DNA from: Acidobacteriota bacterium
GTDB taxonomy: Bacteria > Acidobacteriota > UBA6911 > RPQK01 > JAJDTT01
Direction: 5' to 3'
Length of the DNA stretch: 64,000 bases
NCBI GenBank assembly: GCA_965217775.1
Contig: CBDCJH010000002.1
Location: 800,001-864,000 of the forward strand
Under the pieces are notes generated by a model, which saw nothing but the letters and a program-made list of their open reading frames with translations, did no database searches and was not told where the DNA came from. Made by a program: the position numbers and the translations under genes. Numbering within the stretch: the first letter of the stretch is position 1; each line of letters opens with the position of its first letter. Shown here one piece after another: positions 12-57,172 of this stretch.

Positions 12-608
12 GTGGTCAGGACGCTTGCGCCGCGAGAAAAATTTGTGGACTACCTGTCCAACCTGCCGGAGTTCGAGCCTTACCTTGAAGCGAGAGGATC
101 GTTCACTGGCCACGTCCTTGTTGGCTCAACGGAGGCCTTTGCGGCGATTGGCATTCTCCAAGACCCCGTCACCGGGGCGATCTCGACCGTCGAGCCCGAT
201 GTCGTCCGGCGGCCCCTTCGCAGAGAGGTTCCGGCATGGTATGCGAGCAAATCCACGGAGCAGTATGAAATCGCCGTCACCGTCGCGACCGAACCGCACT
301 GGATCACAGGAGAAAGATGGTGGACGAAGGCGACGATCGGAGTTCTTCGGGACTCAGAAGGGTGGAAATATCCGTATCAGGTAGAGATTGGGCTCTTGGA
401 CTCGGCGGGGAAGAGAGTCACCTGGACCTACGTTGACACTCGCCCGTCCATCCACGATGGACATCCTGATTTGCAGCGTCACGGCGGCAAGTTTTATCCC
501 CTCCGCCCGTTCCGTATTCTCCAGCACCATGTGGCACGGGTGCAGGACATCCGAATCGACAAGGTTTGGAGACGGCAAGGGGACCGGTGGGTCGTGATCG
601 AGGATTGA
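12..608 (+). CDS. hypothetical protein, probably 5'-truncated by window edge
   Basis: 198-aa ORF, stop TGA 606-608; no recognised catalytic motif. Confidence 0.55.
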   Translation: MVRTLAPREKFVDYLSNLPEFEPYLEARGSFTGHVLVGSTEAFAAIGILQDPVTGAISTVEPDVVRRPLRREVPAWYASKSTEQYEIAVTVATEPHWITGERWWTKATIGVLRDSEGWKYPYQVEIGLLDSAGKRVTWTYVDTRPSIHDGHPDLQRHGGKFYPLRPFRILQHHVARVQDIRIDKVWRRQGDRWVVIED

Positions 609-609
609 C

Positions 610-660
610 TGTCCCTCAGTCATTAACTATCGAACGTTAACTGTTTCAGTCATTTAACGG
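610..660 (+). repeat. conserved element left-arm motif, homologous to 25811-25847
   Basis: tgtccctcagtcattaactatcgaacgttaactgttt vs tgtctctcagtcaaaaactaacgaacattaacttttt, 6 mismatches in 37 bp. Confidence 0.7.
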
Positions 661-1034
661 GTTCTTCGCCGGATCGGTAAAGTGGTTGACTCCCTATGTT
701 TGACGTGCTGAACAGGCAGCAGAATCGGTTCCTGAAAGCTGACTCACTCTTCCCATTTTCTCTAGTTTCCCAGGTTCGGAACACATGGTGCTTGCGCTGC
801 GTCGATCTTAGGCCAGCACCGCAGGGAAACACTTGAACCCTGACAGACTCGTGGTCCATTGACAACGGGTTCCCCGGCGCGTGTGCCGGGGGGCGGTGGG
901 GAAGATCCGACGCTACTTCGCGCTCAAGCCGCCGAATGCCGTCGAGGCCAACCGGACCGTCTTCGTCCGTGTCGATCCGGGGCATTCGACCGACCAGGGC
1001 CTGCTCAACGCCTACGGCGGAGTGGCGGCCGCCC

Positions 1035-1746: not shown

Positions 1747-1980
1747 CCCCATTCTTTCCACCGGGATGAATCGGATGTCTTTGGCCCTTCATGGCCGTGA
1801 ACGGACGTAACCGTTCGGCCAGACCGTGAATGGAGTGGACTTCCACTCCGACTAGTCGTGGCTTGATTGGTGCGGTCCGTGTTCGGAGCGGGCGTGCGGA
1901 TCAGGTTGACGAGAACCTCGGCAGTTGGCGCAGAGGATACGTCATTGCGCTGGAAGGCTCGTCCAAGATGTTGGAATGCG

Positions 1981-2739
1981 ATGATGTTGAAACGCAAGCC
2001 GCTTCCTCTCATTCGCCTGATAGTGAACATGACTCCTGCCGAACGCGTCGATCAGCGCACTTGGTCCACGCTCGGTTGTGCCCAACAACTTCGGGTCCGT
2101 TTCGGCGAAGAAACGCTGACCGATTTGCTCGTGCTTGACATGCTTCCACACCAGCGCACCAGGGGCTTTTGGCTCTCTCCAACTACGAAGCATGCCGAGC
2201 ATCGGCACGGTGCCGACCTCCTTGTTGCCGAGCGATATCACACCGGCCGCTGGTCCCGCTTCGCGCTTCAGGCTAAAAAGCTGTACCCGAACGACAAATA
2301 CCCGATGTTGAACGGGGGGCCGAAGTACCACAGCCAATTGGACAAGCTCGACGTGTTCGCGCGGCAGCTACACGCCCTGCCCCTTTACTTGCTCTACAAC
2401 CACTCGAACACCGTACAGCCTTCCAAGCACTGGCACTGCTCGCAGCCTTTCGACGTAGGTCAACTGGGTTGCACGCTTGTCCCGAGTTGGCACATTCGGC
2501 GCATGACTTCCCGTCCGCTCCCTCGGAATTTCGACCTGGCTCACAAAGTCAGTCAGGCCAAACCATGGCGCTACGCCTTCGATTGTCCCGACGCCGAGAC
2601 ATCACTCATCCAAATGGCGTTTCGCACTCGGCATCGAGACCCGAATACACCGCCCGCCGGGCACCGTCAGTACGACTGGCCCTGTCAACCGATGAAAGCT
2701 GCTTGGCCTGAAAGGCTGTTTCGCAAATCGATGACATAG
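1981..2739 (+). CDS. DUF6615-like putative PD-(D/E)XK nuclease-fold protein
   Basis: EETLTDLL...E...GAD...ALQAKKL motif pattern; start uncertain. Confidence 0.6.
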   Translation: MMLKRKPLPLIRLIVNMTPAERVDQRTWSTLGCAQQLRVRFGEETLTDLLVLDMLPHQRTRGFWLSPTTKHAEHRHGADLLVAERYHTGRWSRFALQAKKLYPNDKYPMLNGGPKYHSQLDKLDVFARQLHALPLYLLYNHSNTVQPSKHWHCSQPFDVGQLGCTLVPSWHIRRMTSRPLPRNFDLAHKVSQAKPWRYAFDCPDAETSLIQMAFRTRHRDPNTPPAGHRQYDWPCQPMKAAWPERLFRKSMT

Positions 2740-2972
2740 CTGATGAGGGAAGATGTGGACAAAATCCGACGCGAACTGACTGGGTTCTACCGTTGCGGTG
2801 CCAATGACGGGCCAATAGAATCTTTCAGATATGATGAGAGGTGGTTGTATCCGGCGCGACTCCTCCTAGTTGATCGGTCGAAGGAACCGTAAGTGCGGTC
2901 TCGTGAGCCTCAGCCGCCAGAGCAGGACGTCAAGACCATGGATCACTTCTACCGACAGGTGAGGCTTGGCGC

Positions 2973-3028
2973 GCACAACCGACCGGTTTCTGTTGATAGC
3001 CACCGGCAGGTGAGCCGGATTGTTAGCA
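2973..3028 (+). other. degenerate integron attC-like site
   Basis: GCACAAC ... caggtgagccggattGTTAGCA, 10 bp before ATG 3039; left arm pairs poorly. Confidence 0.4.
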
Positions 3029-3196
3029 GGACAAAGCCATGGACTTCTCGACGCTGCTCGAAAACAAGGTGCTTCTGGCCGCCATTTCAGGCCTATCGGG
3101 CGTTGTCTTAACGCTGATTACCCAGCGGATTCTAGGGAAGCGCGGACTGTTCACCTACTTTGGGGGATTATATACGAAAGTGCCGAAACCTGAGCA

Positions 3197-8816: not shown

Positions 8817-9911
8817 TCATTTGTTGGATTTTCTGCGATTGCACTGCTTGCACAGCATTTGACAGTTCTGTGCGATTGTCTTGCCGCCCTCGGCCCAAGG
8901 GGTGATGTGGTCGGCCTCCATATACGACATCTCAAACTTCTTCGCACATGACTTGCAAATGCCGTTTTGACTCTCGAACGCCTTCTGCTTCATGGCGGGG
9001 GAGAAGGCCCGGATGTTGAGATGTTTCTCCTCGCCGGTGAGGAGATACGGGTAGATGCCCGCCTTTTTCGTCACATCGTCGTCGATCATCAGGCGGACAA
9101 TGTCGTCCTCAAGTCCTTCGGGATCCAGGCTCTCGTCTTTGAGTTGCCCGTAAAGCCCGCCCCAATCCACGCCTTTCATTGGCTTGCGGTAGTTCGGGAA
9201 AACCGCTTCCACCCGGTTGATTACCGCTTGGAAGTGACTCCACAAGGCGGTTGCGGTCTTGTCGTGCTGATGCGTGGCCATGTACTCTTCGACCGTCTGG
9301 CCCTCGTCCTTGATCCATTGGATCGCGATTTCGAGGTACTCCTGGCGATCCGCCCTCCCTTTCACATACCGACTTCCGATTGCATAAGCCGGGCAGGCGG
9401 CCCCCTTCCGGCTGAAATGCCGCTTTGCGTCGGACACCCACGGGCCAGCATAGACCGCATTCCGCAGCTCTTGGCTGGTCAGCCTTTCGCCCGCGATGTT
9501 GATGATCCTGAACCAAGCCAGCTTCTCGCTGGCACTCCCCTCGCAGAAATAAACCTGCAACGGGTAATTGAGGATCCGCTCCTGCTCGTCGTCTTGCAGG
9601 TTGTGGAAATACCGCCCGTCAAGGGAGTAGTCGCCTTTCACGTACTGCGCGGCTGAGATCGTGCGCTGCTGGCCGTCTATGACTTCATACGTTCCGTCTT
9701 GGCGCACGGCCCAATACATCACATTGAGCGGAAAGCCCTTGTTGATCGTCTCGATCACCGCATTGCGCTGCTTGTCCTTATAGACAAACTCGCGCTGAAA
9801 AGGCGGGCGGATGTCGAGTTTGCCGCCATAGCCGCGCACCCCGCCTTCGCCGTCGTCATGGTAGTCCTCCACAAGGTCGCGGACTGTGATTTTCTTCAGA
9901 TCAATTTTCAT
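8817..9911 (-). CDS. DUF262 + HNH endonuclease (GmrSD-like domain pair)
   Basis: PPFQREFVY, IDGQQR, EADHITPWAEGG...NCQMLCKQCN. Confidence 0.9.
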   Translation of the reverse strand: MKIDLKKITVRDLVEDYHDDGEGGVRGYGGKLDIRPPFQREFVYKDKQRNAVIETINKGFPLNVMYWAVRQDGTYEVIDGQQRTISAAQYVKGDYSLDGRYFHNLQDDEQERILNYPLQVYFCEGSASEKLAWFRIINIAGERLTSQELRNAVYAGPWVSDAKRHFSRKGAACPAYAIGSRYVKGRADRQEYLEIAIQWIKDEGQTVEEYMATHQHDKTATALWSHFQAVINRVEAVFPNYRKPMKGVDWGGLYGQLKDESLDPEGLEDDIVRLMIDDDVTKKAGIYPYLLTGEEKHLNIRAFSPAMKQKAFESQNGICKSCAKKFEMSYMEADHITPWAEGGKTIAQNCQMLCKQCNRRKSNK

Positions 9912-10434
9912 TGCGGCAGCACTCTCTTAATCAGAAGGCGAACATAAGTGGGTCTGAACTCGCCCCCAACCTTTATCACACCCCTTCTATTCAGATTGCC
10001 TGCGTTGGGCACATCTGCCACCGAGTATTCTTTCGTCTTAAGATCGGAGTTGTTGTCCCTGTCTGTTATCCCCATGACTTCGAACTGCTCCGGGTTGTGT
10101 TTGTCCAGAAATGTTATCGGCACCCCCATCGCCCCGTCCCAATCCATCGGGATTTCGGCGGTCTTGTCCACATTGATCGCGTCGTAGTTGTCGTAGGCCG
10201 GGTATTCCTCCGGCGAGTACCGCTTGTAGAGGATCAATTCCTCGTGGCGCATGGCATGGTCGAGATTGGTGAACCAGCCGACGTTTCTGAATTTGACCAG
10301 TCCGGTCGATTCGTCGAAGTACGACTTGCTTTCGTAGCGTTCAACGTCCGCCACCTTGAAATACGCGTTTCCATTGCTGAAGCCATATCCAAACCACACC
10401 CGGTTCTCTTTGATTAGCGGAAAAATCTCCTTAT

Positions 10435-12430
10435 CCCAGATTATTCATCACGCAAACATAAAATGGGAAAGCGTTCCCGCCATGTCGAGTCGGATCAGAG
10501 GGTTACGGGATACCCACAGAAAAAGGTCGAGAGCCGCCGTGGGTGAAACGCTATCGTGGTTTTCGACTCCGCCTTAATCTTTGGGTTCAGAGGGGTCCGA
10601 AACCCTCGCATTTCCAAGGTTTTCTCCCCTTCCATGGGCGGCAAAAAGAGGCGGCGTGCCCGTCATTTGTGGTATGATTATGGTGCTAAGAAACAACAAC
10701 AAAGAACGGAGCACGCCATGCCTGAGACGATACCGCAGATCCGGCCCTCATTCAACCGATCCCTCCGCCTCGAGACCCGCCCCGAGTTGCTCAGTGCGGA
10801 CACGGGAGCCCTGGTGCAACGGGAGATGATGGATCGTAGCGGCCTCATCGATTGGTTGACCGAGCGGTTGCACGATCGGCGACACCCGAGTTCGATCCGC
10901 TATCCGCTGTCGGATCTGCTGCGGACTCGACTCCTGCTGCTGGGGCAGGGCTGGCGCGACCAGTCCGACGCCGACCGCCTGCGTCAGGATCCGAGCTTGC
11001 GGGTGGCGAGCCAGACCCGTCGGGGCACGGCGGCCTTGGAGGAGGGCCAGGGGCTGGCATCGCAGCCGACCTTGTCCCGACTGCTGGACACGCTCAGCCG
11101 GGAGGAGAACGTTCCGGTCCTGCACCAGGCGGTGACGGAGCTGGCGTGCCGTCGGATCGAGATGATCGAAGGTCGGCGGCGAAAACGGGGGAAAAAGACC
11201 CCACGGAAGAAGAGACGGAAAAAGACGATGGTCCTGGACGTGGACGGTCTCCCGGTGGAGGTCCATGGGCATCCCCCGGGAAGCGAATGGAACGGATACT
11301 ATCGCCAGCGGATGTACCACGGGTTGGTGGCGAGTTGTGCCGAGACGGGGGACCTGATCGACGGGGAGATTTTTCCGGGAGCCAGCTACTTGGGGAAGAA
11401 GGCGCTGAAGTTGACGCTCCGGGTGGTGGACCGCTGTCGGGGGCGTCTGTGCGGCTCGATGATCGTTCGGATGGATGCGGGGTTCCCGGAGCCGGGGCTG
11501 CTGAAGGGGCTGGAATCGAGAAGCGTGCCCTATATCGCTCGAATCCGCAAGAATGAGGTCCTGAATCGGATGGCGAAGCCCTACTTGACCCAACCGGCGG
11601 GGCGATCCCCGGATGCACCACCGAGGCTCTGGTTCCATGAGCTGACCTATCAGGCGGAGAGTTGGGATCGGGCGCGCCGGGTGGTGCTGGTGGTGCGGGA
11701 GCGACCGGGGGAGTTGTATCCGGATCATTTCTGGTTGCTGACGAGCCTGAGCCGGAAGCGTTATGAGGCGGAAGCGTTGCTGGCAAAGTATCGCAAGCGG
11801 GGGAAGGCGGAAGGGCACATGGGGGAGTTGATGGACGTGTTCGATCCGGCCTTGTCCTCCGCGAGCCGGCCCAAGACGCACTATCGGGGCAAACCGCTGA
11901 AGCCGGGAGCCAAGCCGGAAGCGACGACGGAGGCCGGGGTTCGACCCCACAACGAAGTCTTGTTCCTGCTGAATCTGCTGGGGTACGAGATCCTGCACCT
12001 GGGTCGGGTGCTGATGGAGCAGGCGACGCGTCGGGGCTGGAGTCTGCGTCGTTTTCGCGAACGGGTGTTGCGAGTGGCGTCTCGGGCGCTGCGTCAGGGG
12101 AGGCGATTGATTTTCGTCATCAGTCAAGGGGCGACGGACTGGAAGCGGTTGTGGAAGAGCCTGGCGCGGGTGTCCTGGGCGCCGGGATAGTGGACGGAGG
12201 AGGAATCGGGCCCGTGGAAGGGACCGAAACGGTGGGAATTTCTCACCGGAAAGTCAACCTGTCGGCGGATGACGGTCCCCCTGGCCGGTAAACGGTTTAT
12301 GAGTGGTTCAATCGTCCTGTTTTTGAGCCGATTCAGTCGAATCGACAGAGGTTCGAGAGAAACCGGGCTCCGACCGCCAGAAAACGCCGGGCTGGAAGCC
12401 CTTATCAACATGTCCCATGAATAATCTGGG
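10435..12430 (+). mobile_element. IS1380-family insertion sequence
   Basis: TIR cccagattattcat / atgaataatctggg; 5-bp TSD cttat at 10430-10434 and 12431-12435. Confidence 0.93.
10718..12190 (+). CDS. IS1380 family transposase
   Basis: LASQPTLSR, LDVD, VRMDAGF, YRKRGKAE motifs. Confidence 0.92.
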   Translation: MPETIPQIRPSFNRSLRLETRPELLSADTGALVQREMMDRSGLIDWLTERLHDRRHPSSIRYPLSDLLRTRLLLLGQGWRDQSDADRLRQDPSLRVASQTRRGTAALEEGQGLASQPTLSRLLDTLSREENVPVLHQAVTELACRRIEMIEGRRRKRGKKTPRKKRRKKTMVLDVDGLPVEVHGHPPGSEWNGYYRQRMYHGLVASCAETGDLIDGEIFPGASYLGKKALKLTLRVVDRCRGRLCGSMIVRMDAGFPEPGLLKGLESRSVPYIARIRKNEVLNRMAKPYLTQPAGRSPDAPPRLWFHELTYQAESWDRARRVVLVVRERPGELYPDHFWLLTSLSRKRYEAEALLAKYRKRGKAEGHMGELMDVFDPALSSASRPKTHYRGKPLKPGAKPEATTEAGVRPHNEVLFLLNLLGYEILHLGRVLMEQATRRGWSLRRFRERVLRVASRALRQGRRLIFVISQGATDWKRLWKSLARVSWAPG

Positions 12431-13030
12431 CTTATAGGTGACGGCGTTCTTGCTCCCGATAATCAGGAACTTCTTGCCGTACTCCTCCAGTTGGGCGACG
12501 TATTCGCGGAACAGCGAAAACGGCGGGTTGGTCACCACGATGTCCGCCTGCTTCAAAAGCTCGATGCATTCCGGGCTGCGGAAATCCCCGTCCCCTTCAA
12601 ACGCATGGACCCCAATATCCTCTACGTCGGGTACTCTGCCGCCCTTAGAGTTCCCCTTGTATTCGAGCCATATCGCCCGCTCCACATCGTGACGGCTGAA
12701 TAGGTCGCGGTCCTGGTTCTTGTAGCACGCAGTGATGAGCTTCTTCAGGCCCAGGCGCTCGAAGTTGTACGAGAAGTAATGGAAGAAGTTGGAGACGCGG
12801 GGATCGTCGCAATTGCAATACACGACTTTGCCCCGGAAATGTCTGGTGTAGTGGCGCAGCTCGTTCTCGATGTCGGAAAGCTGCGTGTAGAACTCGTCGT
12901 TCTTCTGCCGCTTGGCTTTTCGTAAGTTTTCATTCAGAGACATGGGTTTGCTCCCTAACCAAGCCTGTTATCGGTGATCAGTCCCCGATATTTGAGCCGC
13001 TCATGCTCGTTCCCCAACCTCGGCACTTCG

Positions 13031-19300: not shown

Positions 19301-19886
19301 TGGGCTCCGTCAGGGGTCTAGGCAAGGGGAACTGCGTAGCTGAGTGCCCCAATGAACTCTCTCCATTGGGGTTCGTCCATCAGTCTTCCTCAAGGTTATC
19401 CGATATCGCCAACAGAGAGTGCGCAATGGCGCGTGCCGGGGCTCGGGACAAGTTGGCGTACTGGGGAATGCCAGACTGATATTCGATCCGGTGGCTTGGA
19501 AGTCCGATCCTGAATTCTATCGGGTGCTCGGGGCGTCGCTGGCTCCTATGAAAACCGGACAGGCGACGTTCCTAGTGTTGACCTGGAAGGTTCGGCTTTT
19601 TTTACTTCTCACGGTGCTCTCTCCATCGGTTCCGTTGCCTTCGCCCTGATGTATTTGCTGCCGACGGTAGCGCTCTGGGCGCTCCTCGTCATCCATGTTC
19701 TCCTCGATGTGCCGCTTGAAGGCCCTGTACCCCCAGCCGAAGCCTGCCAGCAAAAGGGACCTAACGGGCACTCAGCTACGCAGGACCCCCCATTTTATGG
19801 TTCGCCTGTAACCGATGCGCTGATTGCCCGGGAAGCCGGGAAGCTGGGGATATCAGACTTCGAGCCGGCCCGTCGCACTGATCCAA

Positions 19887-20405
19887 GTGCCTAACCGGAG
19901 GCCCTTCAGTGTTGCCGCCGCGGCCCAGTACCTGAGCAATGCCATCGGCACGATTCGCAACCTGGCCGATTTGAACATCATCAAAGCCAGAGTCGAACTC
20001 GACACCGCCGGCCGGCTACGGCGGGTCTTCGCTCAGGAGGACTTGGACGACGATGTCGATTCTCTGGAGCCGTGGTACGATTCGCCCCACGGCGAAGAAC
20101 CCGGATCCAGAAAGGAGGAGATGCATGGGCATCTACAAGGTGAAGGATCGCCGGGGGAGGAGACGATACGTCTTCAGCAAGTACTGGCCGAACGGATCCG
20201 GTCGGCTCCGAATGTACGCCCCCAACTACCGGAGCGCACAGGCGCTCCAAACTCGGGTGGAGTCCAGCATCCTGGACGGCACCTGGAAGCAACTCAAGGA
20301 GGAACTCGCCGGTGGGAAACGCACCATCTGGACGGTGCACAGTTTCTACCAGCGTTTTCTCGAGGAGTATTGCAAACCTCGCATGCGCTCCTGGCGGAGC
20401 TATGA
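19887..20405 (+). CDS. excisionase-like HTH protein (tail overlaps integrase)
   Basis: FSVAAAAQYLSNAIGTIRNLADLNIIKA...RRVFAQEDLD directly upstream of int. Confidence 0.55.
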   Translation: MPNRRPFSVAAAAQYLSNAIGTIRNLADLNIIKARVELDTAGRLRRVFAQEDLDDDVDSLEPWYDSPHGEEPGSRKEEMHGHLQGEGSPGEETIRLQQVLAERIRSAPNVRPQLPERTGAPNSGGVQHPGRHLEATQGGTRRWETHHLDGAQFLPAFSRGVLQTSHALLAEL

Positions 20406-21210
20406 GGGTTCGTTCAAGAGCCTCAACGCCATGCTGGGGAACATTCCCCTGAAGGAGTTCCAACGCAAGGACCTGCACCGCTACGTCGCCCAGAGGAAGA
20501 AGCAAGTCAAATCGGCCACGGTGAACCGCGCCATCGCCGCCATCAGCAAGCTGTTTTCCTACGCGCTGGAGTGTGGGGAGATCGACACGCACCCGCTGGT
20601 GCGGTTTTCCAAACTAAAGGAGCCCAAGAAGGTCTTCCGGCCATTGACGGTTCAGCAGTTCCGCGACCTGGTCGAGGCGGTGGACAACCCTTACCTGCAA
20701 GCCATGATCGCAGTGATCGGCGAGACGGGGATACGCAAGGGAGAAGCGTTGTCGCTCACTTGGAAACGGGTGGACCTGCGTCGCGAATTGCTCTGGGTGG
20801 AACTCACCAAGAACGACGAGACGAGGGAGATACCGCTGTCGAAGTACGCCACCGGATATCTGGTCGGGCTGGTTCGTTATCTGAACACTCCATACGTCTT
20901 CGTCAACAGCCGGACGGGGACGAGATGGGTGAATCTCGACAAGCCGCTACGTCGCGCTGCCGAGAAGGTGGGGTTGAAGGTCGGATTTCACGATCTGAGG
21001 CGCTTCCGGTGCAGCCATTGGCTGATGCAGGGTGTGGACGTGAGGACGGTGCAGAAGCTGATGGGACACTCGGCGATCAGCACGACGATGCGGTATGCGG
21101 GGTACGTCAGTTCGCATGCGCTGGCAAGCATTCGGGAGGCACAGGCTAACGAAGACTCACAAACACAACAGGCAACAAACAGGCAACGGGCAGGAAGCAA
21201 GGGGCAATGA
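20125..21210 (+). CDS. tyrosine recombinase / integrase
   Basis: RBS aggagg; TGIRKGE, K, FHDLRR, MGHS, RY catalytic residues intact. Confidence 0.95.
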   Translation: MGIYKVKDRRGRRRYVFSKYWPNGSGRLRMYAPNYRSAQALQTRVESSILDGTWKQLKEELAGGKRTIWTVHSFYQRFLEEYCKPRMRSWRSYEGSFKSLNAMLGNIPLKEFQRKDLHRYVAQRKKQVKSATVNRAIAAISKLFSYALECGEIDTHPLVRFSKLKEPKKVFRPLTVQQFRDLVEAVDNPYLQAMIAVIGETGIRKGEALSLTWKRVDLRRELLWVELTKNDETREIPLSKYATGYLVGLVRYLNTPYVFVNSRTGTRWVNLDKPLRRAAEKVGLKVGFHDLRRFRCSHWLMQGVDVRTVQKLMGHSAISTTMRYAGYVSSHALASIREAQANEDSQTQQATNRQRAGSKGQ

Positions 21211-21252
21211 TTCGAGGGAATACTTGGGATAACCTGTTGAAAATAAAGGATC

Positions 21253-21291
21253 AATCCTGTAGCTCAGTTGGACCGAGCAACGGATTTCCAA
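21253..21291 (+). other. tRNA-like 5' half (att arm), not a complete tRNA
   Basis: aatcctg-TAGCTCAGTTGGACCGAGC-A-ACGGA-tttccaa; no T-arm or acceptor 3' strand follows. Confidence 0.8.
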
Positions 21292-21352
21292 TCGCCCATT
21301 CTTCAGCGCCAAATTGTCACTCTGGAGTTCGGCGGTTGGAAACCCCCGATCC
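21283..21352. repeat. REP-like inverted pair, left unit truncated by island junction
   Basis: gatttccaatcgcc ... ggcggttggaaacccccgatcc, just downstream of the aldolase stop. Confidence 0.65.
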
Positions 21353-21357
21353 AATCC

Positions 21358-22194
21358 TTATCTGATGTTTGCCCGGTAGTCGTCCAGCAGGGCTGCGGCC
21401 CCGGTCCGGATGAATCCCAATTCCGATTCGGCTTCGAAGAAGGTGGCTCCCTTGCGGGCCCACTCGCCGGCGGCGGCGCCGCTCGACGGGGTGGTGCCGA
21501 AGGCCACGCCGTACTTCTTGCAGAGCTCCAGGACCGTCTCCATGGGACCCCGCACCGCAGGGTGATCGTAGTCGCCCGGGTGTCCGAACTCGATGGAAGT
21601 ATCTCCCGGGCCCACGTAACACATGTCCACCCCGGGCAGGCTCAGGATCTCCTCAGCGTTCTCGTATCCGCGGACCGTTTCCAGATGCACCACCACCGCG
21701 GTCTCCTGGTCCTGTTCGTCCATCCAGCCCTGCCAATCGGTGACGTGCCGGTAGTCGCTGTTGCCCCATCCCGGCGCCACGGCCCGGGTTCCCTCCAGTG
21801 GAAACTTCAGGTAACTCAGCAACTTCTGGACCTGCTCCCGGGTCTCGGTCCGGGGCAGTTGGATGCCCACCACTCCCGCCTCAAGCAACTTCGAGACCTC
21901 TTGGCGTTCCAGCTGGGGCGTCTTGGCGATGACCGGCAGGCCGTTGTCCCGGGCCGAGAGAATGGTGTCCGCCAGATCCTGCAAGGCAAAGAGGCTGTGC
22001 TCGTACTCGATATAGACGAAATCGAATCCCGCGTGCTGAAACAGTTTGACGAGGGACGGGTGGGCATACGCCTCCAGCATGGGTCCGATCAACACCTCCC
22101 CCCGCTTGAGGCGGGCCTTGAGGTGCCGCCCCGGTCCCCCCTCCGGATACCAGGGGTTGTCGATTCCGATGCTGGTCTTGGGACATTGGGACAT
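21358..22194 (-). CDS. HpcH/HpaI aldolase family protein
   Basis: GFDFVYIEYEHS, VHLETVRG, YVGPGD. Confidence 0.9.
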   Translation of the reverse strand: MSQCPKTSIGIDNPWYPEGGPGRHLKARLKRGEVLIGPMLEAYAHPSLVKLFQHAGFDFVYIEYEHSLFALQDLADTILSARDNGLPVIAKTPQLERQEVSKLLEAGVVGIQLPRTETREQVQKLLSYLKFPLEGTRAVAPGWGNSDYRHVTDWQGWMDEQDQETAVVVHLETVRGYENAEEILSLPGVDMCYVGPGDTSIEFGHPGDYDHPAVRGPMETVLELCKKYGVAFGTTPSSGAAAGEWARKGATFFEAESELGFIRTGAAALLDDYRANIR

Positions 22195-22215
22195 GGGGTC
22201 TCTTTCCGATGTGAA

Positions 22216-22629
22216 TCAAGTGATCCAGTTTTCGATCTTGAGTCCGGGAACTCTGGAGAAGTGTTTCCGGTTGTTGGTCACCAAAACACAGCCGATGCTG
22301 AGAGCGTGCGCGGCGATCATGGCGTCATTGCCGCCGATGGGCGTTCCGATTCTGAACAACTCTGCCTGTAGCGTTCCGAACTCCTCCGCTGCCTTTGCGT
22401 TCCACGCCATAATGCGGTTCAGCCGGTCGCAAAACAGCCGGATGGCTCGTTTGTAACTCTTGACGCGTTGAGACCTCTCGGCGCCAAGTCGCAACTCAGC
22501 ATAGGTGATGGCGGAAATCGATATTTCCGCACCCGAATGCGCTCTTGCGTGAAGGGTCGTCAGCAATGGCAGATCTCTCGCCCGAATCACGTAGCTGCAG
22601 ATGTCGGTATCCAGCATATACCGCATCAA
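22216..22629 (-). CDS. vapC: VapC PIN-domain toxin
   Basis: YMLDTDICSY, AELRLG, DAMIAAHA, LVTNNRKHF. Confidence 0.92.
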   Translation of the reverse strand: MMRYMLDTDICSYVIRARDLPLLTTLHARAHSGAEISISAITYAELRLGAERSQRVKSYKRAIRLFCDRLNRIMAWNAKAAEEFGTLQAELFRIGTPIGGNDAMIAAHALSIGCVLVTNNRKHFSRVPGLKIENWIT

Positions 22630-22859
22630 AACGTGACTCGATGGCTATCCATCAGCTCTGGTCTGGACTCCATAAAATCGTCGTCCACGGTCGGAGCTTC
22701 CTCGGCGTAGGATTTCCAGCTCTTGCGAGCAGGCAACAAGATCAAGGCTTCTCCGTCCTTACGGATGATCACTTCATCGACGCCCTCGAAACGAAACGCC
22801 TTGGGGATCCGAACGGCTTGACTGCGACCATTTACGAACAGCTTGGCAGTAGTTTCCAT
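22626..22859 (-). CDS. vapB: VapB (AbrB-type) antitoxin
   Basis: AKLFVNGRSQAVRIPKAFRF. Confidence 0.92.
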   Translation of the reverse strand: METTAKLFVNGRSQAVRIPKAFRFEGVDEVIIRKDGEALILLPARKSWKSYAEEAPTVDDDFMESRPELMDSHRVTF

Positions 22860-23033
22860 ACTTGCACTCCGACTCTGACCTGCACCGTCTCAATGCGACC
22901 ATTGTATATCACGGGCATATGCCAAGCGGCAAGTGAACCGTCCTATGGAAGCAACGCCGAATCGGACTTTCGCAGCCGGCTGCTATACTGGCGCCTCCCG
23001 CAACGGCACCGAATCCAATCGTGAAAGGACTCC

Positions 23034-24155
23034 ATGAATCGAAGGGAAGCGCTTCAAGCCGGCGCGGCTTCCTTGGTCCTGCCGGCGCTGGTCTCTTCGG
23101 CGTCCGCCCACACTACTGGAGATCCTCCGGGTAGCCGCATCCGGACGGCGATCCAGAAGGTCTGCGCCTGGCCCAATCTCAAACGCCTGGAGGACGGAAC
23201 CCTGGTGGCCTTCCTCTACAACCAACCCTGTCACGGGCTCTGGGAGGGGGACCTGGACTGCTGGGCCAGCGAGGATGACGGCCGGACCTGGCGCTTTCGC
23301 AGCCGGCCGGCCGAACATGAGCCCACCACGGCCCGCATGAACTGCGCGGCCGGTTTCGCCGCGAACGGTGATCTGGTGGTCCTGTGCAGCGGTTGGGCGG
23401 ACCGGGCGCCCAAGGGTGTCCTGAGCGGTCCTCACCGGCGGGTGGTCCGGGCCTGGGTCTGCCGCTCGTCCGACGGCGGACGCACTTGGGAGGTGAGCCG
23501 GGACTTTCCCGCTCCTCCCGATTCTCCGGCCGGACGAGACAATGAATTCATCGCGTTCGGCGATATTCGTATCGCTGAAGATGGATCTCTGTGCGCGCCG
23601 GTCTACCTTCGGCGGGAGGATCTGCGGGAATCCTATCTGCTGCGAAGCCGGGACGACGGGTGGACCTGGGGCGATCCGGTTCCCTTGAATCCGGGCGGGA
23701 ACGAAGCCGATATCCTGCATCTCGGAGGTGGCCACTGGTTGGCCGCGTCGCGGGAGTTCAAGGAGAGGCGCGACGTTCATCTGGAACTGTTCGTCTCCAC
23801 GGACGACGCTCGCACCTGGGAGCGAAAGATGCCACTGAGTCTGCCCATGCAGGTGACGGGCAACCTGGCGGCACTGTCGGACGGACGCGTTCTCCTCAGC
23901 TACGGAAACCGCTGTTGGAACAACTTCGGCGTGGACGTCCGGCTCAGCGAGGACCAGGGGAAATCCTGGAGCCCGCCCATCCGCATCGCCGACTGTCCCC
24001 GGGCCGACTGCGGGTATCCCAGCAGCGTGCAACTGGCCGACGGCCGGGCCGTCACCGCCTTCTACACCCAGGTCTCGGAAGACTTTCACTACGAGATGCG
24101 CGTGGCTACGTGGCGTCCCGGAAAGTACACGGCGTCCGGCCGGCCGCGTTCGTAG
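23034..24155 (+). CDS. sialidase/BNR-repeat protein with Tat signal
   Basis: MNRREAL; repeated SxDxGxTW Asp-boxes. Confidence 0.88.
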   Translation: MNRREALQAGAASLVLPALVSSASAHTTGDPPGSRIRTAIQKVCAWPNLKRLEDGTLVAFLYNQPCHGLWEGDLDCWASEDDGRTWRFRSRPAEHEPTTARMNCAAGFAANGDLVVLCSGWADRAPKGVLSGPHRRVVRAWVCRSSDGGRTWEVSRDFPAPPDSPAGRDNEFIAFGDIRIAEDGSLCAPVYLRREDLRESYLLRSRDDGWTWGDPVPLNPGGNEADILHLGGGHWLAASREFKERRDVHLELFVSTDDARTWERKMPLSLPMQVTGNLAALSDGRVLLSYGNRCWNNFGVDVRLSEDQGKSWSPPIRIADCPRADCGYPSSVQLADGRAVTAFYTQVSEDFHYEMRVATWRPGKYTASGRPRS

Positions 24156-24216
24156 GAAAGTCAAAAAGCCGGGGGGTGGCCGGCAGGCTGATCCTCGCTC
24201 GAGATGGTCATCTGCT

Positions 24217-25677
24217 TCAGGCCAGGAACTCCTCCATCACCTTTCCGTGGATGTCGGTCAGCCGGTGATGGCGGCCCTGGAACTTGAAGGTGAGCCGGGT
24301 GTGGTCGATTCCCAGGGCATGCAGGACGGTGGCCTGGAAGTCGTGGACGTGCACCGGGTCCCGAACCACGTTGTAGCCGAAGTCGTCGGTCTCTCCGTAG
24401 ACGGCGCCCGCCTTCATGCCGGCGCCGGCCATCCACATGGTGAAGCACCGGGGGTGGTGGTCGCGGCCGTAGTTGTCCTCGGTGAGCTGGCCCTGGCAGT
24501 AGGCCGTTCTTCCGAACTCGCCGCCCCAGATCACCAGTGTCTCCTCCAGCAGCCCCCGTTGCTTCAGGTCCGTCACCAACGCAGCCGAGGCTTGGTCGGT
24601 CGCGGTGCACTGCTCCCGGATCGCACTGGGAAGGTTGAGGTGCTGATCCCATCCCCGGTGGAAGAGCTGCACGAAGCGGACCCCCTTCTCGCTGAGGCGC
24701 CGGGCCAGCAGGCAGTTGGCGGCATAGGTTCCGGGCGTCCTGGAGTCGGGGCCGTAGAGGTCGAAGGTGCGCTCCGGTTCCTGGGAGAGGTCGGTCAACT
24801 CGGGGACCGAAGCCTGCATCCGAAAGGCCATCTCGTATTGGGAGATCCGGGCGGCGATCTCGGGGTCCCCCAAAGAATCCATGCGGATTCGGTTCAGGTC
24901 TCCGATTCCGTCCATCATGCGGCGCCGGGTCGCCATGCTGATCCCCGGAGGGTTGGAGAGATAGAGCACGGGATCGCCGCCGCCCCGGAACTTGACCCCC
25001 TGGTGGCTGGAGGGGAGGAATGCGCTTCCCCACATCCGGGACATGATGGGCTGCATGGCCCGAATCTCCCCCTTGGAGACCAGGACCACGAAGCTGGGCA
25101 GGCTGTCGTTTTCGCTTCCCAAGCCATAGCTCAGCCAGGCGCCCATGCTGGGCCGGCCGGGCTGTTGGCTTCCGGTCTGAATGAAGGTCATGGCCGGATC
25201 GTGGTTGATGGCGTCCGTGTGCACCGTCTTCACCATCAGCAGCTCATCGACGATTCGGGCCGTGTGAGGCAGCAGTTCGCTGACCCAGGTCCCGGACTGG
25301 CCGTGTTGCTCGAACTTGAAGAGGGAAGGGACCACCGGGAGTTGGGCCTGCTGCGAAGTCATTCCCGTGATGCGCTGTCCCCTGCGGATGGAGGCAGGCA
25401 GATCGGTGCCTCGAAGCTCCTGGAGCCGGGGTTTGTAGTCGAACAGGTCGAGTTGGGAGGGTCCCCCCGACTGGTAGAGGAAGATGATCCGCTTGGCGCG
25501 GGGAGCGAAGTGGGGGAGGCCGGGCAGGCCCCTTTTCCCGACTCCGCCGTCCACGGAACCAGCCGCCAGCTCGGGGCGCAGCAGCGACGCCAGAGCCGCC
25601 GTCCCCACACCCAAGGTGGTCCGAGAGAAGAAATGGCGCCGCGTCCACTCCGGATGGAGGGCTTGATTCAATTTCAC
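24217..25677 (-). CDS. DUF1501 domain protein
   Basis: [35 protein letters not shown]. Confidence 0.92.
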
Positions 25678-25757
25678 CGGCTGCTTCTTGGTGAGGCCAT
25701 GGAATGATCTGCTCGAATCGAGTCTATTCCGGGCCGGGCATCCCGGTCAACGCGCCT

Positions 25758-25806
25758 GGAGGGGGGACAGTCTTGTCCCCCATTTGGGAGGGGGGACTGT
25801 TAGTCC
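25758..25806 (+). repeat. GGAG-type REP-like palindromes; second unit split by element 2
   Basis: ggaggggggacagtcttgtccccc and ggaggggggactgttagtcc (3' C-run missing here, found at 28241-28246). Confidence 0.7.
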
Positions 25807-25891
25807 TAATTGTCTCTCAGTCAAAAACTAACGAACATTAACTTTTTACGGAGCAAATGCGGAGGTTGCCGGCTGAACCCGTTTCCTGGTA

Positions 25892-26113
25892 GCCGACTTG
25901 TAATCGGTACGGCGTTAACAGCCCGTGGTAAAAGTCGTCACGGCATTCGACCGTCCCTGCATCCCGGCGGACTGCGTTGCTATCGGCTCACATACTCCCG
26001 GTATGCTCCCTCCGTTGCGCCTTGTCCGGCGGGCGCAGGAACGGTCTCGGTGCTCGCGGGACTTTCACCACGGGCTGTTAAGCCGCGCGGGTTCGACTCC
26101 CGCCCCGCTTCCA
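25892..26113 (+). other. degenerate tRNA-like 3' part (anticodon, long variable and T arms) split by a MITE
   Basis: GCCGA-CTTGTAA-TCGGT, CGGC-gttaa-GCCG, GCGGG-TTCGACT-CCCGC, cccgcttCCA after removing the MITE. Confidence 0.65.
25915..26081 (+). mobile_element. MITE family 1, copy 1
   Basis: TIR acagcccgtggt / accacgggctgt flanked by TA/TTAA; internal hairpins; 3 copies in window. Confidence 0.85.
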
Positions 26114-26265
26114 TCAGCGTATGATAGTTGGGAATCTCAGGATGCAATCAGAAACGAAGATGCCCGCCAAGCAGGCCGAGCGACCGAGGCTCGACACCGC
26201 GCTCACCGAGAATCTAAAGATGCTGGGGTTCGAGGGTGGGGGGCCGTGAAGCCCGGAGGGAACTC

Positions 26266-28017
26266 GTGAACGTAACCGACGCGGAAATCCGCCAGCGTTT
26301 GCGCCTGGGCGAGGACAGCGGCTGGGAGTTCAAGCAGATCGAATTTAGTGGCGATCGCCCGACAAGCCTCCGGCGAGAGGACCTCTCCGATGAGATTGCG
26401 GCCTTCGCCAACGCGAACGGGGGCGTGCTTCTTTGCGGGATTTCCGACGGCGGTCGGATCCAGGGTATGTCCCCAGAGCAGATGGCCGCTCTTGACCACC
26501 TGTTGGTCGAAGTGAGCACGGACGCGGTGGAACCTTCCCTTCGCATCCACGTTCACCATCGAGAACTCGACGGCAGGGCCTTCGTACTCGTGGCTGTACC
26601 GCGGGGCGATGCCGTACACGAGCGAGCCGGTCGCGCATTCATCCGGGTCGGCGCAACCAAACGCCGCCTCGGCGGCGACGAGCGTCTGCGGCTGGCGCGA
26701 GGACGCGCCCAGAGCCGCTACGTCTGGTTCGACCGGCAGATTGTTCCGCAGACCGGCTTCGAGACCCTCAACGAGCGTCTTTGGGAACCGCTGCTCAGCG
26801 TGGCAGGAGCGTCTGACCCTCGCCGGGCTCTGATGAACCTTCGGCTTCTGGCGCCCGATGAAGCCGATGTGGACCGGGCCACGGTAGCTGGCGTGCTGCT
26901 CTGCACCAACTCTCCCCAGGACTGGTTGCCGCAAGCGACTATCGTGGCGACCCGCTATCGCGGCAAGGAACGAGCCTCCGGCCAGTTGGACGCACAGGAA
27001 ATCGCAGGGCCGCTTCCCATCCAGATCGCTCACGCGGTGAAGTTCGTGGTCCGCAACATGCGCGTATCGGCACGCAAGACGCCTTCGCGAGAAGATGCGC
27101 CGCAGTACAGCAAGTCTGCGGTGTTTGAAGCCGTGGTCAACGCGGTTGTGCACCGCGACTACTCAATGTCCTCGCGCCGGATCAGGCTGTCGATGTTCAA
27201 GGATCGGCTGGAGATTGACTCGCCCGGTCAACTTCCCAACGGGATGACAATAGACAGCATGGATTCGAGTCAAGCAACACGCAACGAAGTTCTCGCTTCC
27301 GTGTTTGGACGAATCCCCGTGGGCGACGTTCCCGGGTCTCGGCATCGCCGATACATGATGGAACGCCGAGGGGACGGCGTCTCGATCATCCTCACGGAAA
27401 CCCGCGAGACCGCCGGCATTGAGCCGGAGTACAGAGTCATTGATGTGTCGAGTCTGGTGCTGGCTATCCCGGCGGCCAGACTCGAACTCACACCGTCGGA
27501 CGCCACGGTCACGGTGCACATGGAGGGCGAGCCTCTAGTCGGCGTCGACATCCTGGCCCTGTTTCCGAACAAGACTTGGCAACGGGCAACAACCGACGAA
27601 GCTGGCGAAGCAGACTTCGACCTGTACACGACGCATCTGCCGATGACCGTTTACGCCGCAGTCTCCGGGTACACTGCCGGGTTGGCACGGGAGTGGACTC
27701 CGCGCCAAGGCGGCCTGTTGCTGGAACTGGCTCCGCTCCTGGCCGGAGGCGCGATCATTTTTCCACAGTCTACCGGACATCTCCCCGGACTTCGCGGACG
27801 GCTGAACCCGATACGCGATACTTCCGATCGGACCTATCTGTACGCAGACAACGTCGCCATCGAGCAGGGACGGCAGCAGCCGGTGTCGTTCCGGCTGGGC
27901 AAACCGATGAGGCTAACAGACGCGTTCGGTGTCGAAATGTCAGTAACCATAGTCGACATCATTGGGAGTTCGGCCCTAGTGGAATACAGGCCCTTCGAAA
28001 CCAGCAAGAACCGGTGA
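26266..28017 (+). CDS. AlbA_2 (Schlafen-like) domain + HATPase_c_4 protein with extra C-terminal domains
   Basis: GEDSGWEFK, IAAFANANGG, EAVVNAVVHRDY, EIDSPG. Confidence 0.88.
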   Translation: MNVTDAEIRQRLRLGEDSGWEFKQIEFSGDRPTSLRREDLSDEIAAFANANGGVLLCGISDGGRIQGMSPEQMAALDHLLVEVSTDAVEPSLRIHVHHRELDGRAFVLVAVPRGDAVHERAGRAFIRVGATKRRLGGDERLRLARGRAQSRYVWFDRQIVPQTGFETLNERLWEPLLSVAGASDPRRALMNLRLLAPDEADVDRATVAGVLLCTNSPQDWLPQATIVATRYRGKERASGQLDAQEIAGPLPIQIAHAVKFVVRNMRVSARKTPSREDAPQYSKSAVFEAVVNAVVHRDYSMSSRRIRLSMFKDRLEIDSPGQLPNGMTIDSMDSSQATRNEVLASVFGRIPVGDVPGSRHRRYMMERRGDGVSIILTETRETAGIEPEYRVIDVSSLVLAIPAARLELTPSDATVTVHMEGEPLVGVDILALFPNKTWQRATTDEAGEADFDLYTTHLPMTVYAAVSGYTAGLAREWTPRQGGLLLELAPLLAGGAIIFPQSTGHLPGLRGRLNPIRDTSDRTYLYADNVAIEQGRQQPVSFRLGKPMRLTDAFGVEMSVTIVDIIGSSALVEYRPFETSKNR

Positions 28018-28200
28018 GAGTTTGGCCGAATATCTTGAAAGTAAGGTTTCCTTTTCCCCCTCAAATTGGGGGATGTAGTCAGGATAATCCTTAAAGTGCC
28101 TCGATGCCTTTCCGATCTCTGGCTTCCAGTCGCAGTATGGTTCGGATCTCGTTGCTTCGTCAGAATCTCGCCCAGGCCCAGGAACTACTATTAGTCCCCA

Positions 28201-28239
28201 CATCCCGTAGCTCAGTTGGACAAAGCGACGGACTGTCAG
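28201..28239 (+). other. tRNA-like 5' half (att arm), second copy
   Basis: catcccg-TAGCTCAGTTGGACAAAGC-G-ACGGA-ctgtcag. Confidence 0.8.
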
Positions 28240-28281
28240 TCCCCCCAAGCCCCGGAACCGGGGGTTGCAAACCCCCGCTCC
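28230..28281. repeat. REP-like palindromes at right junction
   Basis: ggactgtcagtcccccc and gggggttgcaaacccccgctcc next to the transporter stop codon. Confidence 0.7.
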
Positions 28282-44588: not shown

Positions 44589-44729
44589 CGAGTGCCGAGA
44601 CCGTTCCTGCGCCCGCCGGACAAGGCGCGATTCGGGTGCATACCGGGAGTATGTGCCCGAATCGCAACGCCGTCCGCCGGGATGCAGGGACGGTCGAATG
44701 CCGTGATGACTTTTGCCACGGGCTGTTAA
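44589..44729 (-). mobile_element. MITE family 1, copy 2 (one end lost)
   Basis: reverse complement of copies at 25915 and 57009. Confidence 0.8.
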
Positions 44730-57008: not shown

Positions 57009-57172
57009 AACAGCCCGTGGCAAAAGTCATCACGGCATTCGACCGTCCCTGCATCCCGGCGGACGGCGTTGCGATTCGGGCACATACTCCCGGTATGCAC
57101 CCGAATCGCGCCTTGTCCGGCGGGCGCAGGAACGGTCTCGGTGCTCGCGGGACTTTCACCACGGACTGTCAA
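57009..57172 (+). mobile_element. MITE family 1, copy 3
   Basis: acagcccgtggcaaaagtc ... gactttcaccacggactgt. Confidence 0.85.

Follow-up and report, generated by a model that had tools for sequence, protein, structure and literature searches.

Elements with a tyrosine integrase and tRNA-Arg-derived ends split REP-like hairpins at the loop in Acidobacteriota

Introduction

Insertion sequences (IS) that target repetitive extragenic palindromic (REP) sequences, such as IS1397, ISKpn1 and IS621/ISPpu10, encode DDE or DEDD (IS110, RNA-guided) transposases and are of IS size. Multiple sites are also used by Tn916/CTnDOT and TnPZ/XerT, in which a tyrosine recombinase acts on a crossover region of 6-7 bp; these elements recognize loose motifs, and unlike coupling sequences are tolerated or carried over. 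Sequence-variable hairpin repeats serve as substrates for the integron integrase (attC) and for XerCD (folded CTX phage DNA), two tyrosine recombinase systems with single-stranded substrates and replicative resolution. Here, we have analyzed 64,000 nucleotides of an Acidobacteriota genome (assembly GCA_965217775.1, contig CBDCJH010000002.1, positions 800,001 to 864,000 of the forward strand; this whole stretch is called the window). The window carries most of one element (A) and the whole of another (B) that very probably belong to a family of lambda-type tyrosine-integrase elements, with a phage-type attachment site (attP) derived from tRNA-Arg, retargeted in one genus-level lineage to REP-like hairpins.

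Islands inserted in tRNA genes usually carry the 3′ part of their target: of the 3919 islands in the Islander report, 3760 have a 3′ fragment and only 159 a 5′ fragment (PMC4383910). REP targeting has been described for insertion sequences, with specific insertion within REP palindromes and many neutral intergenic targets; in the accessible text of that report (PMC1525189), integrases are mentioned by that word only where a comparison is drawn with viral or retroviral enzymes. The tycheposons of Prochlorococcus, as presented in the accessible part of bioRxiv 10.1101/2020.12.28.424599, are cargo elements with tyrosine recombinases and partial-tRNA flanks, often in tandem. Two further reports, in the portions at hand, describe tRNA or other sites and not REPs (PMC7549136, PMC3390384). 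No tyrosine integrase or island targeting REPs was found in the main texts of the open-access papers and bioRxiv manuscripts surveyed.

Results

Throughout, G000 stands for the genome under study, C2 for its contig coordinates and the other G numbers for the comparison genomes. The original prediction, made from the letters of the window, had described two junctions at which a tRNA-like 5′ half passes into the loop and 3′ arm of a REP-like palindrome. Both halves, the loops and arms following them, a matching 5′ arm with its loop and TCC (GGGGGGA-CTGTTAG-TCC, 25790-25806) and an integrase 42 bp upstream of the first half were all found in place. Element A (C2:798864-821291, forward strand) is 22.4 kb long and covers window positions 1-21291, its left terminus lying 1,137 bp before window base 1. 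Its right end is a 5′ half derived from tRNA-Arg(UCU) (21253-21284, forward strand), equal to the real gene at 26 of 32 positions and decayed in the acceptor-stem part. There follow TTTCCAA (21285-21291), the 7-nt REP loop and proposed crossover overlap, and TCGCCC (21292-21297), the chromosomal 3′ arm of the split REP. The partner REP of this doublet, CGGCGG-TTGGAAA-CCCCCG, is at 21330-21348. The left end, at C2:798852, reads GGCGA-TTTCCAA-TCC followed by the conserved left-end sequence, so that the same 7 nt (C2:798857-798863) stand at both ends.

Element B (25804-28232, forward strand; 2.4 kb, or 25797-28239 with the loops) has a left end homologous to that of the family, preceded by GGGGGGA and CTGTTAG (25790-25803), respectively the 5′ arm and the loop of the REP that it splits. 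Its tRNA-Arg-derived 5′ half (28201-28232, forward strand) is followed by the loop CTGTCAG (28233-28239) and the 3′ arm TCCCCCC, the two together spanning 28233-28246. The right loop differs from the left one at 1 of 7 positions, a mismatch also present in G002. An intact neighboring REP, GGGGGGA-CAGTCTT-GTCCCCC (25761-25781), is kept at the locus in relatives.

The junctions had been described as switching exactly at the anticodon-loop position. The placement in the loop was borne out, but the shared letters are GA plus 7 nt plus TC, so the switch region is the loop with its closing bases. Blastn matches of other REP doublets at the A junction start at 21283, that is, at the GA preceding the loop.

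ARAGORN found no tRNA gene in the window, and a scan of the window against Rfam gave no match at the gathering score. Genome-wide, ARAGORN reported a single tRNA-Arg(TCT) gene in G000 (C2:3954257-3954331). The element ends agree with this gene from about position 4 to the last 5′-strand base of the anticodon stem and then diverge, the shared stretch being ..GTAGCTCAG-TGGAC-GAGCAACGGA. A fuzzy search of G000 with a 26-nt query from this half (up to 5 mismatches) returned nine matches, namely five real tRNA-Arg genes and four element right ends: A (window 21259), B (window 28207), D (C2:2753625) and C (C2:2771619, minus strand). All four ends run directly into a REP-type loop and 3′ arm. Searching for a REP 5′ arm and loop followed by TCC yielded six left ends in G000. 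Each of the six follows such an arm and loop, and in their alignment they share about 200 bp (TCC-cgnctgcccctcagtcaa...cattaac...ttaccgggttcttcgccgaatcgg...caggcaacaaacaggca). The 7-mers at the two ends were identical in three of the four G000 pairs, with 6 of 7 matching in the remaining pair (B).

The only intact integrase of the family in G000 is that of element A (20125-21210, forward strand; 361 amino acids), tblastn finding broken copies elsewhere; the gene is broken in element C, a fragment in D and absent from B. Its open reading frame (ORF) ends 42 bp before the 5′ half at 21253. The protein matched Pfam Phage_integrase (E=1.1e-26) together with SAM-like N-terminal domains. The catalytic domain (PF00589, residues 174-325) scored 94.1 bits against a cut-off of 27.1, a G004 copy being likewise above it, and Int_N scored 25.6 bits, just below the cut-off of 27. 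By reading of the motifs IRKGE (203), HDLRR (289) and MRYAGY (322), the putative catalytic residues are R203, H289-x-x-R292 and Y324. Just upstream of the 5′ half, a 17-mer, CAGGCAACAAACAGGCA (21169-21185, forward strand), lies in what would be the P arm, with a copy in the left end (P′ arm, C2:798974). Its six matches in the genome (up to 2 mismatches) were all inside element ends, on both arms, and we infer that these repeats are candidate arm-type integrase binding sites. A further 17-mer copy of the left-end type lies at C2:2778978 (minus strand), about 2.9 kb past the left end of element C, and hints at another decayed element beside C.

An empty REP allele had been predicted in relatives, and one was found for element A. 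The HpcH-like gene to the right of A is present in all eight same-genus genomes. In G006, G007 and G003, an intact REP, GGGGCGA-TTTCCAA-TCGCCC, sits exactly at the A site between msrA-like and HpcH-like genes. The order there is msrA-like gene, ..ggagGGGCGA-TTTCCAA-TCGCCCattcttc.., partner REP and HpcH-like gene, with flanks that agree with those of G000 to the left and to the right of the 22.4-kb insert. Two public runs (X20, X1) contain contigs with this empty junction, visible as loose ends at 21283, and further REP junctions appeared as well. A too-loose IUPAC pattern for free attP matched at least 118 metagenome stretches; none of the 118 listed had an adjoining D-arm or left-end motif, so that the pattern says nothing for or against free attP forms. 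G007 and G002 share element B at its locus, and B is thus old.

We have then looked at the palindromes as a population. G000 holds 130 GGCGA-N7-TCGCC, 224 GGCGG-N7-CCGCC and 51 GGGGA-N7-TCCCC units, compared with 5-29 for four controls of similar composition, confirming the prediction of a dispersed repeat family. A loop of the form YTTCYAR or its complement is present in at least 100 of the 130 GGCGA-N7-TCGCC units, and the anticodon loop of tRNA-Arg, CTTCTAA, falls within this consensus. We counted 27 exact copies of the 17-mer GGCGATTTCCAATCGCC in G000, 79 in G004, 43 in G005, 27 in G006 and 58 in G003. The targets are short imperfect palindromes in high copy, intergenic and often in inverted doublets, as REPs are. 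G000 has three Y1_Tnp genes (PF01797; IS200-like, the family of REP-associated tyrosine transposases, RAYTs); one has GGCGA-TTTCCAG-TCGCC about 65 nt downstream, and none was found near the other two. An association of these repeats with a RAYT being only possible, we call the targets REP-like. In addition, several odd-length ARAGORN calls (75-95 nt) in G000, labeled tRNA-Gly(tcc), tRNA-Ser(gga) or tRNA-Ser(aga), are actually REP doublets (C2: 117489, 1906447, 2649412, 4307977, 4661454 and 6111332). That the program reads a REP hairpin as an anticodon arm underlines the resemblance between the two.

The family was much more abundant in relatives. A search of 61 genomes for integrase homologues found full-length, stop-free genes in G004 (at least 26, 87-93% identical to that of the window), G005 (7), G006 (1) and G003 (1). 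We have fetched 35 integrase-proximal ends and 47 left ends from G004, G005 and G006, the three genomes to which the following end counts refer. The left ends were detected with a motif whose reversed control gave 0 matches. Right ends were detected with up to 7 mismatches, a setting that recovered three loci (L027, L050 and L055) missed with up to 6. The original prediction required that other 5′-half copies abut REPs. Besides the four in G000, this holds for 34 of the 35 ends, in which the 5′ half leads into a loop and arm of REP type; the remaining end is cut by a contig end. Joining each right end to the nearest same-strand left end within 40 kb gave 31 paired elements of 2.7-25 kb, all 31 with identical 7-mers at both ends. 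When the outer flanks were rejoined, a perfect stem of at least 6 bp was formed in 26 of the 31, against 132 of 2000 right-arm-shuffled controls. This supported the claim that the two outer arms rebuild a hairpin split by the element.

The 7-mers of the paired elements were TTTCCAA, TTTCTAA, CTTCCAG, CTGTTAG, CTAACAG, TTTCCTA and CTTTCCT, with TTTCTAG and CTTTTAG at unpaired right ends. They go together with the final bases of the 5′ half (ACGGA, CGGGA or CCGGA), and at least eight loop classes occur among integrases that are 87-95% identical to that of the window. For GGGGA-CTGTTAG-TCCCC, G004 has 15 paired insertions versus 8 intact exact sites. In a minimal 2.7-kb element of G004, the integrase was the only Pfam match among the 10 ORFs scanned. 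The acceptor-stem bases are mostly gone from the 5′ half of the REP-type elements.

Three observations at loci of these relatives deserve separate mention. At about 2485-2540 of L113 (G005:C1:408300-411300), a 5′ half is joined via TTTCCAG to a family left end in an attP-like arrangement, with neither an upstream integrase nor acceptor-stem bases; a tandem array or a rearrangement could have left this remnant. At 680-1070 of L111 (G004:C1:4494900-4498100), there is a segment of about 300 bp that recurs four times in element A (76-88% identity, one copy inverted) and is either a module of the family or another small repeat. At 1810-3057 of the same locus, an integrase frame without the usual stop runs via the tRNA-like end into the REP (415 versus 361 amino acids).

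The integrase homologues were not confined to intact tRNA genes, as the original prediction required: those of G003, G035 and G010 lie at intact tRNA-Arg genes and those of the REP clade described below at REPs. In G003, an integrase 85% identical to that of the window is followed by an intact tRNA-Arg(TCT) gene, and at a distance of 47 kb there is another copy of the 5′ half, identical in sequence. The left attachment site (attL) runs from the native promoter through the tRNA-Arg 5′ half, CTTCTAA and TCC into the family left end; the right one (attR) consists of the integrase and then the intact tRNA-Arg(TCT). The outer flanks are the same as those of the unoccupied tRNA-Arg gene of G000. Based on this anatomy and the shared flanks, a 47-kb island is inserted in the anticodon loop, and the working gene owes its 5′ half to this island. 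G003 thus has the regenerated tRNA gene and displaced fragment by which Islander defines a tDNA island, whereas the window elements have REP halves on both flanks and no tRNA gene in the window. The integrases of G035 (72% identical) and G010 (71%) lie just upstream of tRNA-Arg and are co-directional with it. More distant homologues (36-50%) are mostly convergent with tRNA-Arg, Thr or Leu genes, the usual 3′-side layout. We also noted, on a 1.9-kb contig (L212), an integrase fragment 85% identical to that of the window followed by an intact tRNA-Arg(TCT), a second tRNA-type member; the contig is titled as a Rhodothermales metagenome-assembled genome, a label that may reflect a binning error.

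A maximum-likelihood tree was built from 52 rows, from which broken integrases, the G004 contig-end copy and the partial copies of G007, G008 and G002 were excluded. The 34 REP-associated integrases formed one clade (100/93), with G003 as sister (100/98) and G010 and G035 next (100/100). This nesting indicates that REP use is derived and had a single origin among the sampled genomes. Inside the REP clade, integrases with GGCGA-type and GGGGGA-type targets separate, and CTGTTAG and CTAACAG are mixed among near-identical proteins. As these two loops are reverse complements of each other, the orientation appears to be set by the overlap and not by the protein.

Regarding gene content, element A carries a GmrSD_N+HNH gene (8817-9911) that adjoins an EcoRI-type adenine methylase gene. 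The latter is split (12308-12943 and 9908-10399, minus strand), being interrupted by an IS with a DDE_Tnp_1_4 transposase (10556-12190). The remaining cargo includes an IS1595-type transposase and DinB_2, DUF6988, DUF4145 and DUF6615 proteins. An ORF upstream of the integrase gene (19824-20405) looks helix-turn-helix-like by reading and has no conserved counterpart in the minimal G004 element. Blastn against the minimal element and element C, together with direct reading, also revealed a truncated second left-end sequence inside element A (595-760, forward strand), with no REP arm or loop before it, which suggests growth of A by accretion or nested insertion. This copy directly follows a 436-amino-acid ORF without a family match.

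Element B is a decayed, non-autonomous relative without integrase. Its cargo gene (26236-28017, forward strand) encodes a Schlafen/AlbA_2 + HATPase_c_4 protein. Element C measures 4.5 kb and has CTTCCAG at both ends, and element D measures 1.9 kb and has TTTCCAA at both; the two are separated by only 19 kb and point in opposite directions. Element B also contains a palindromic repeat of 163-165 bp (25916-26080) with TTAA on both sides, resembling a miniature inverted-repeat transposable element (MITE). G000 has 215 copies of at least 140 nt with 76-100% identity, others in the window being at 57009-57169 and 44589-44728. To the right of the MITE-like repeat (26086-26130) there is a T-arm plus acceptor-like fragment, GGGTTCGACTCCCGC..., and to its left an anticodon-arm-like GCCGA-CTTGTAA-TCGGT. 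The reading of this fragment as a tRNA gene broken by the MITE was rejected, since ARAGORN found 0 tRNAs in 440 in-silico removals.

Discussion

The redirection of an integrase from an anticodon arm to a look-alike hairpin, as originally proposed, fits both the tree and the anatomy of the attachment sites; present-day activity of the integrase would be a further assumption, as would any particular mode of hairpin recognition. In the model that we favor, the attP core would consist of the 5′ strand of the tRNA-Arg(UCU) anticodon stem (..GAGCAACGGA), a 7-nt overlap and the TCCC.. that opens the conserved left end, between two attP arms each with CAGGCAACAAACAGGCA. Ancestral members would recombine with the anticodon stem-loop of tRNA-Arg and replace its 5′ half. 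In the REP-type members, G/C-rich inverted arms (GGCGA/TCGCC, GGGGGA/TCCCCC) would provide the two core binding sites in place of the anticodon stem. Strands would be exchanged in an overlap formed by the 7-nt loop and the bases that close it (YTTCYAR, CTGTTAG and others), with the attB loop equal to the attP overlap. A conservative reaction would then leave the same 7 nt at both ends and REP halves flanking the element. The attP overlap would pick the REP subfamily and the orientation, and the self-complementary outer two bases of the 7-mers (CT..AG, TT..AA) may ease orientation flips. With many intergenic targets, the element could multiply within a genome.

A REP-type element entering the single tRNA-Arg(UCU) gene would destroy that gene, because the acceptor-stem bases are mostly absent from its 5′ half. 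The overlaps of REP-type elements differ from the tRNA-Arg loop CTTCTAA. Our direct results concern the structure of the ends, the empty sites, copy numbers and phylogeny. Going beyond these, we infer that the integrase catalyzes the insertion, that overlap identity is required, that the 17-mers act as arm sites and that element A may still be active.

The same junctions could in principle arise without REP targeting, through REPs mobilized by a RAYT and inserted later beside the element ends, or through chance siting in REP-rich spacers. REPs are abundant in intergenic DNA and G000 has three Y1_Tnp genes, yet one intact REP stands exactly at the split point of A in the empty alleles of G006, G007 and G003. 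Moreover, REP loops amount to a few kb of a 6.4-Mb genome, and the hairpin is split at the loop in all 35 paired elements of G000, G004, G005 and G006, with identical 7-mers in 34; we consider this origin scarcely credible. It is also very improbable that another enzyme, a transposase generating a 7-bp target duplication, inserts the elements with the integrase and the tRNA-like end as passengers. Identical terminal 7-mers do resemble a target-site duplication, and element A holds IS1595-type and DDE_Tnp_1_4 transposase genes. However, these transposases are not conserved across elements, one of them splits the methylase gene, and the only recognizable gene of the 2.7-kb G004 copies is the integrase. 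The element ends are not inverted repeats, and the ancestral member shares with the tRNA gene a 42-nt identity block, the signature of site-specific recombination.

A closer alternative keeps the insertion mechanism and changes what is recognized: the integrase might bind the REP as an extruded or single-stranded hairpin, a mimic of the anticodon arm, in the manner of integron integrases with attC or of XerCD with folded CTX phage DNA. A stem-loop was already the target in the ancestral state, and closely related integrases use varied stems (GGCGA, GGGGGA, GTGGGGG) and loops of 5-8 nt. Against this, any palindrome in duplex form whose arms are 7 bp apart is already laid out like a normal core site, and both strands were apparently exchanged precisely, as fits ordinary duplex recombination; we regard structure recognition as unlikely. 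Returning to the favored model of lambda-type integration at REP-like hairpins, we can tentatively entertain an extension in which the integrase reads mostly hairpin geometry and the 7-nt attP overlap is the real address, making it a naturally re-addressable integrase. If so, a change in the overlap, such as the one-base loop mismatch of B, would shift the REP subfamily or flip the orientation. This would explain the at least eight loop classes and would permit a burst-like spread of defense-gene cargo within a genome.

Several observations weigh against integration at REP-like hairpins as we propose it. For element B, the predicted empty REP allele failed to appear in exact form: G003, G006, G004 and G008 are element-free at the locus but the second REP is absent, and G005 and G001 have other sequence there. 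Three right ends of G005 have no left partner within 40 kb, and 16 of the 47 left ends are unpaired. In G000, an intact integrase is present in one of four elements, B, C and D being relics, and for the two other left ends, E (C2:1548551) and F (C2:4137036), no right end was found within 150 kb. The TTTCCTA class lies in GTGGGGG-(T)TTTCCTA-CCCCCAC, where the bases beside the 7-mer are GT/CC and not GA/TC, so that no single core consensus holds for all targets. No excisionase was identified, and the ORF at 19824-20405 has no Pfam match. Joints diagnostic of excision or circles were not found in the public runs, all of them assembled contigs. Finally, the relatives are all metagenome-assembled genomes, labeled Acidobacteriota.

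If our model holds, living relatives display a stepwise shift from a single essential tRNA target to a look-alike dispersed repeat, with an island-sized element acting like a transposon as the outcome (at least 26 copies in one genome). Tyrosine integrases would join the short list of enzymes that exploit REPs, and REP hairpins would gain a role as landing pads for cargo, here genes of the restriction-modification, GmrSD and Schlafen types. Closely related integrase/attP pairs that differ in their 7-nt address would be useful for specificity studies and engineering. For annotation, the tRNA 5′ halves and REP doublets of these genomes should be read as attachment sites and not as pseudogenes.

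Compared with known systems, the closest likeness is to the anticodon-loop islands with a 5′ fragment in Islander, which also combine a tyrosine integrase, a crossover in the anticodon loop and a tRNA part carried by the element. The G003 island is a plain member of that class, whose layout is rare but known to judge from the available portion of PMC4383910. In contrast, the window elements regenerate no tRNA, have mostly lost the acceptor stem, target REPs, and belong to a family with many sites and copies per genome. Tycheposons differ in their target, integrating at tRNA/tmRNA genes and not at REPs in the accessible text of bioRxiv 10.1101/2020.12.28.424599. From REP-targeting IS, the elements are set apart by a tyrosine integrase, probably of the heterobivalent type, an attP of tRNA origin and cargo of up to 25 kb; they have neither IS ends nor a conserved DDE/IS110 transposase of their own, those of A being absent from other copies. 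Unlike Tn916/CTnDOT and TnPZ/XerT, they use a defined hairpin repeat as target, and all but one of the 35 pairs have the same 7-mer at both ends. The comparison with integron/attC and XerCD/CTX is one of mechanistic analogy only. The family thus consists of tyrosine-integrase islands that use a new class of target and reach copy numbers like those of transposons.

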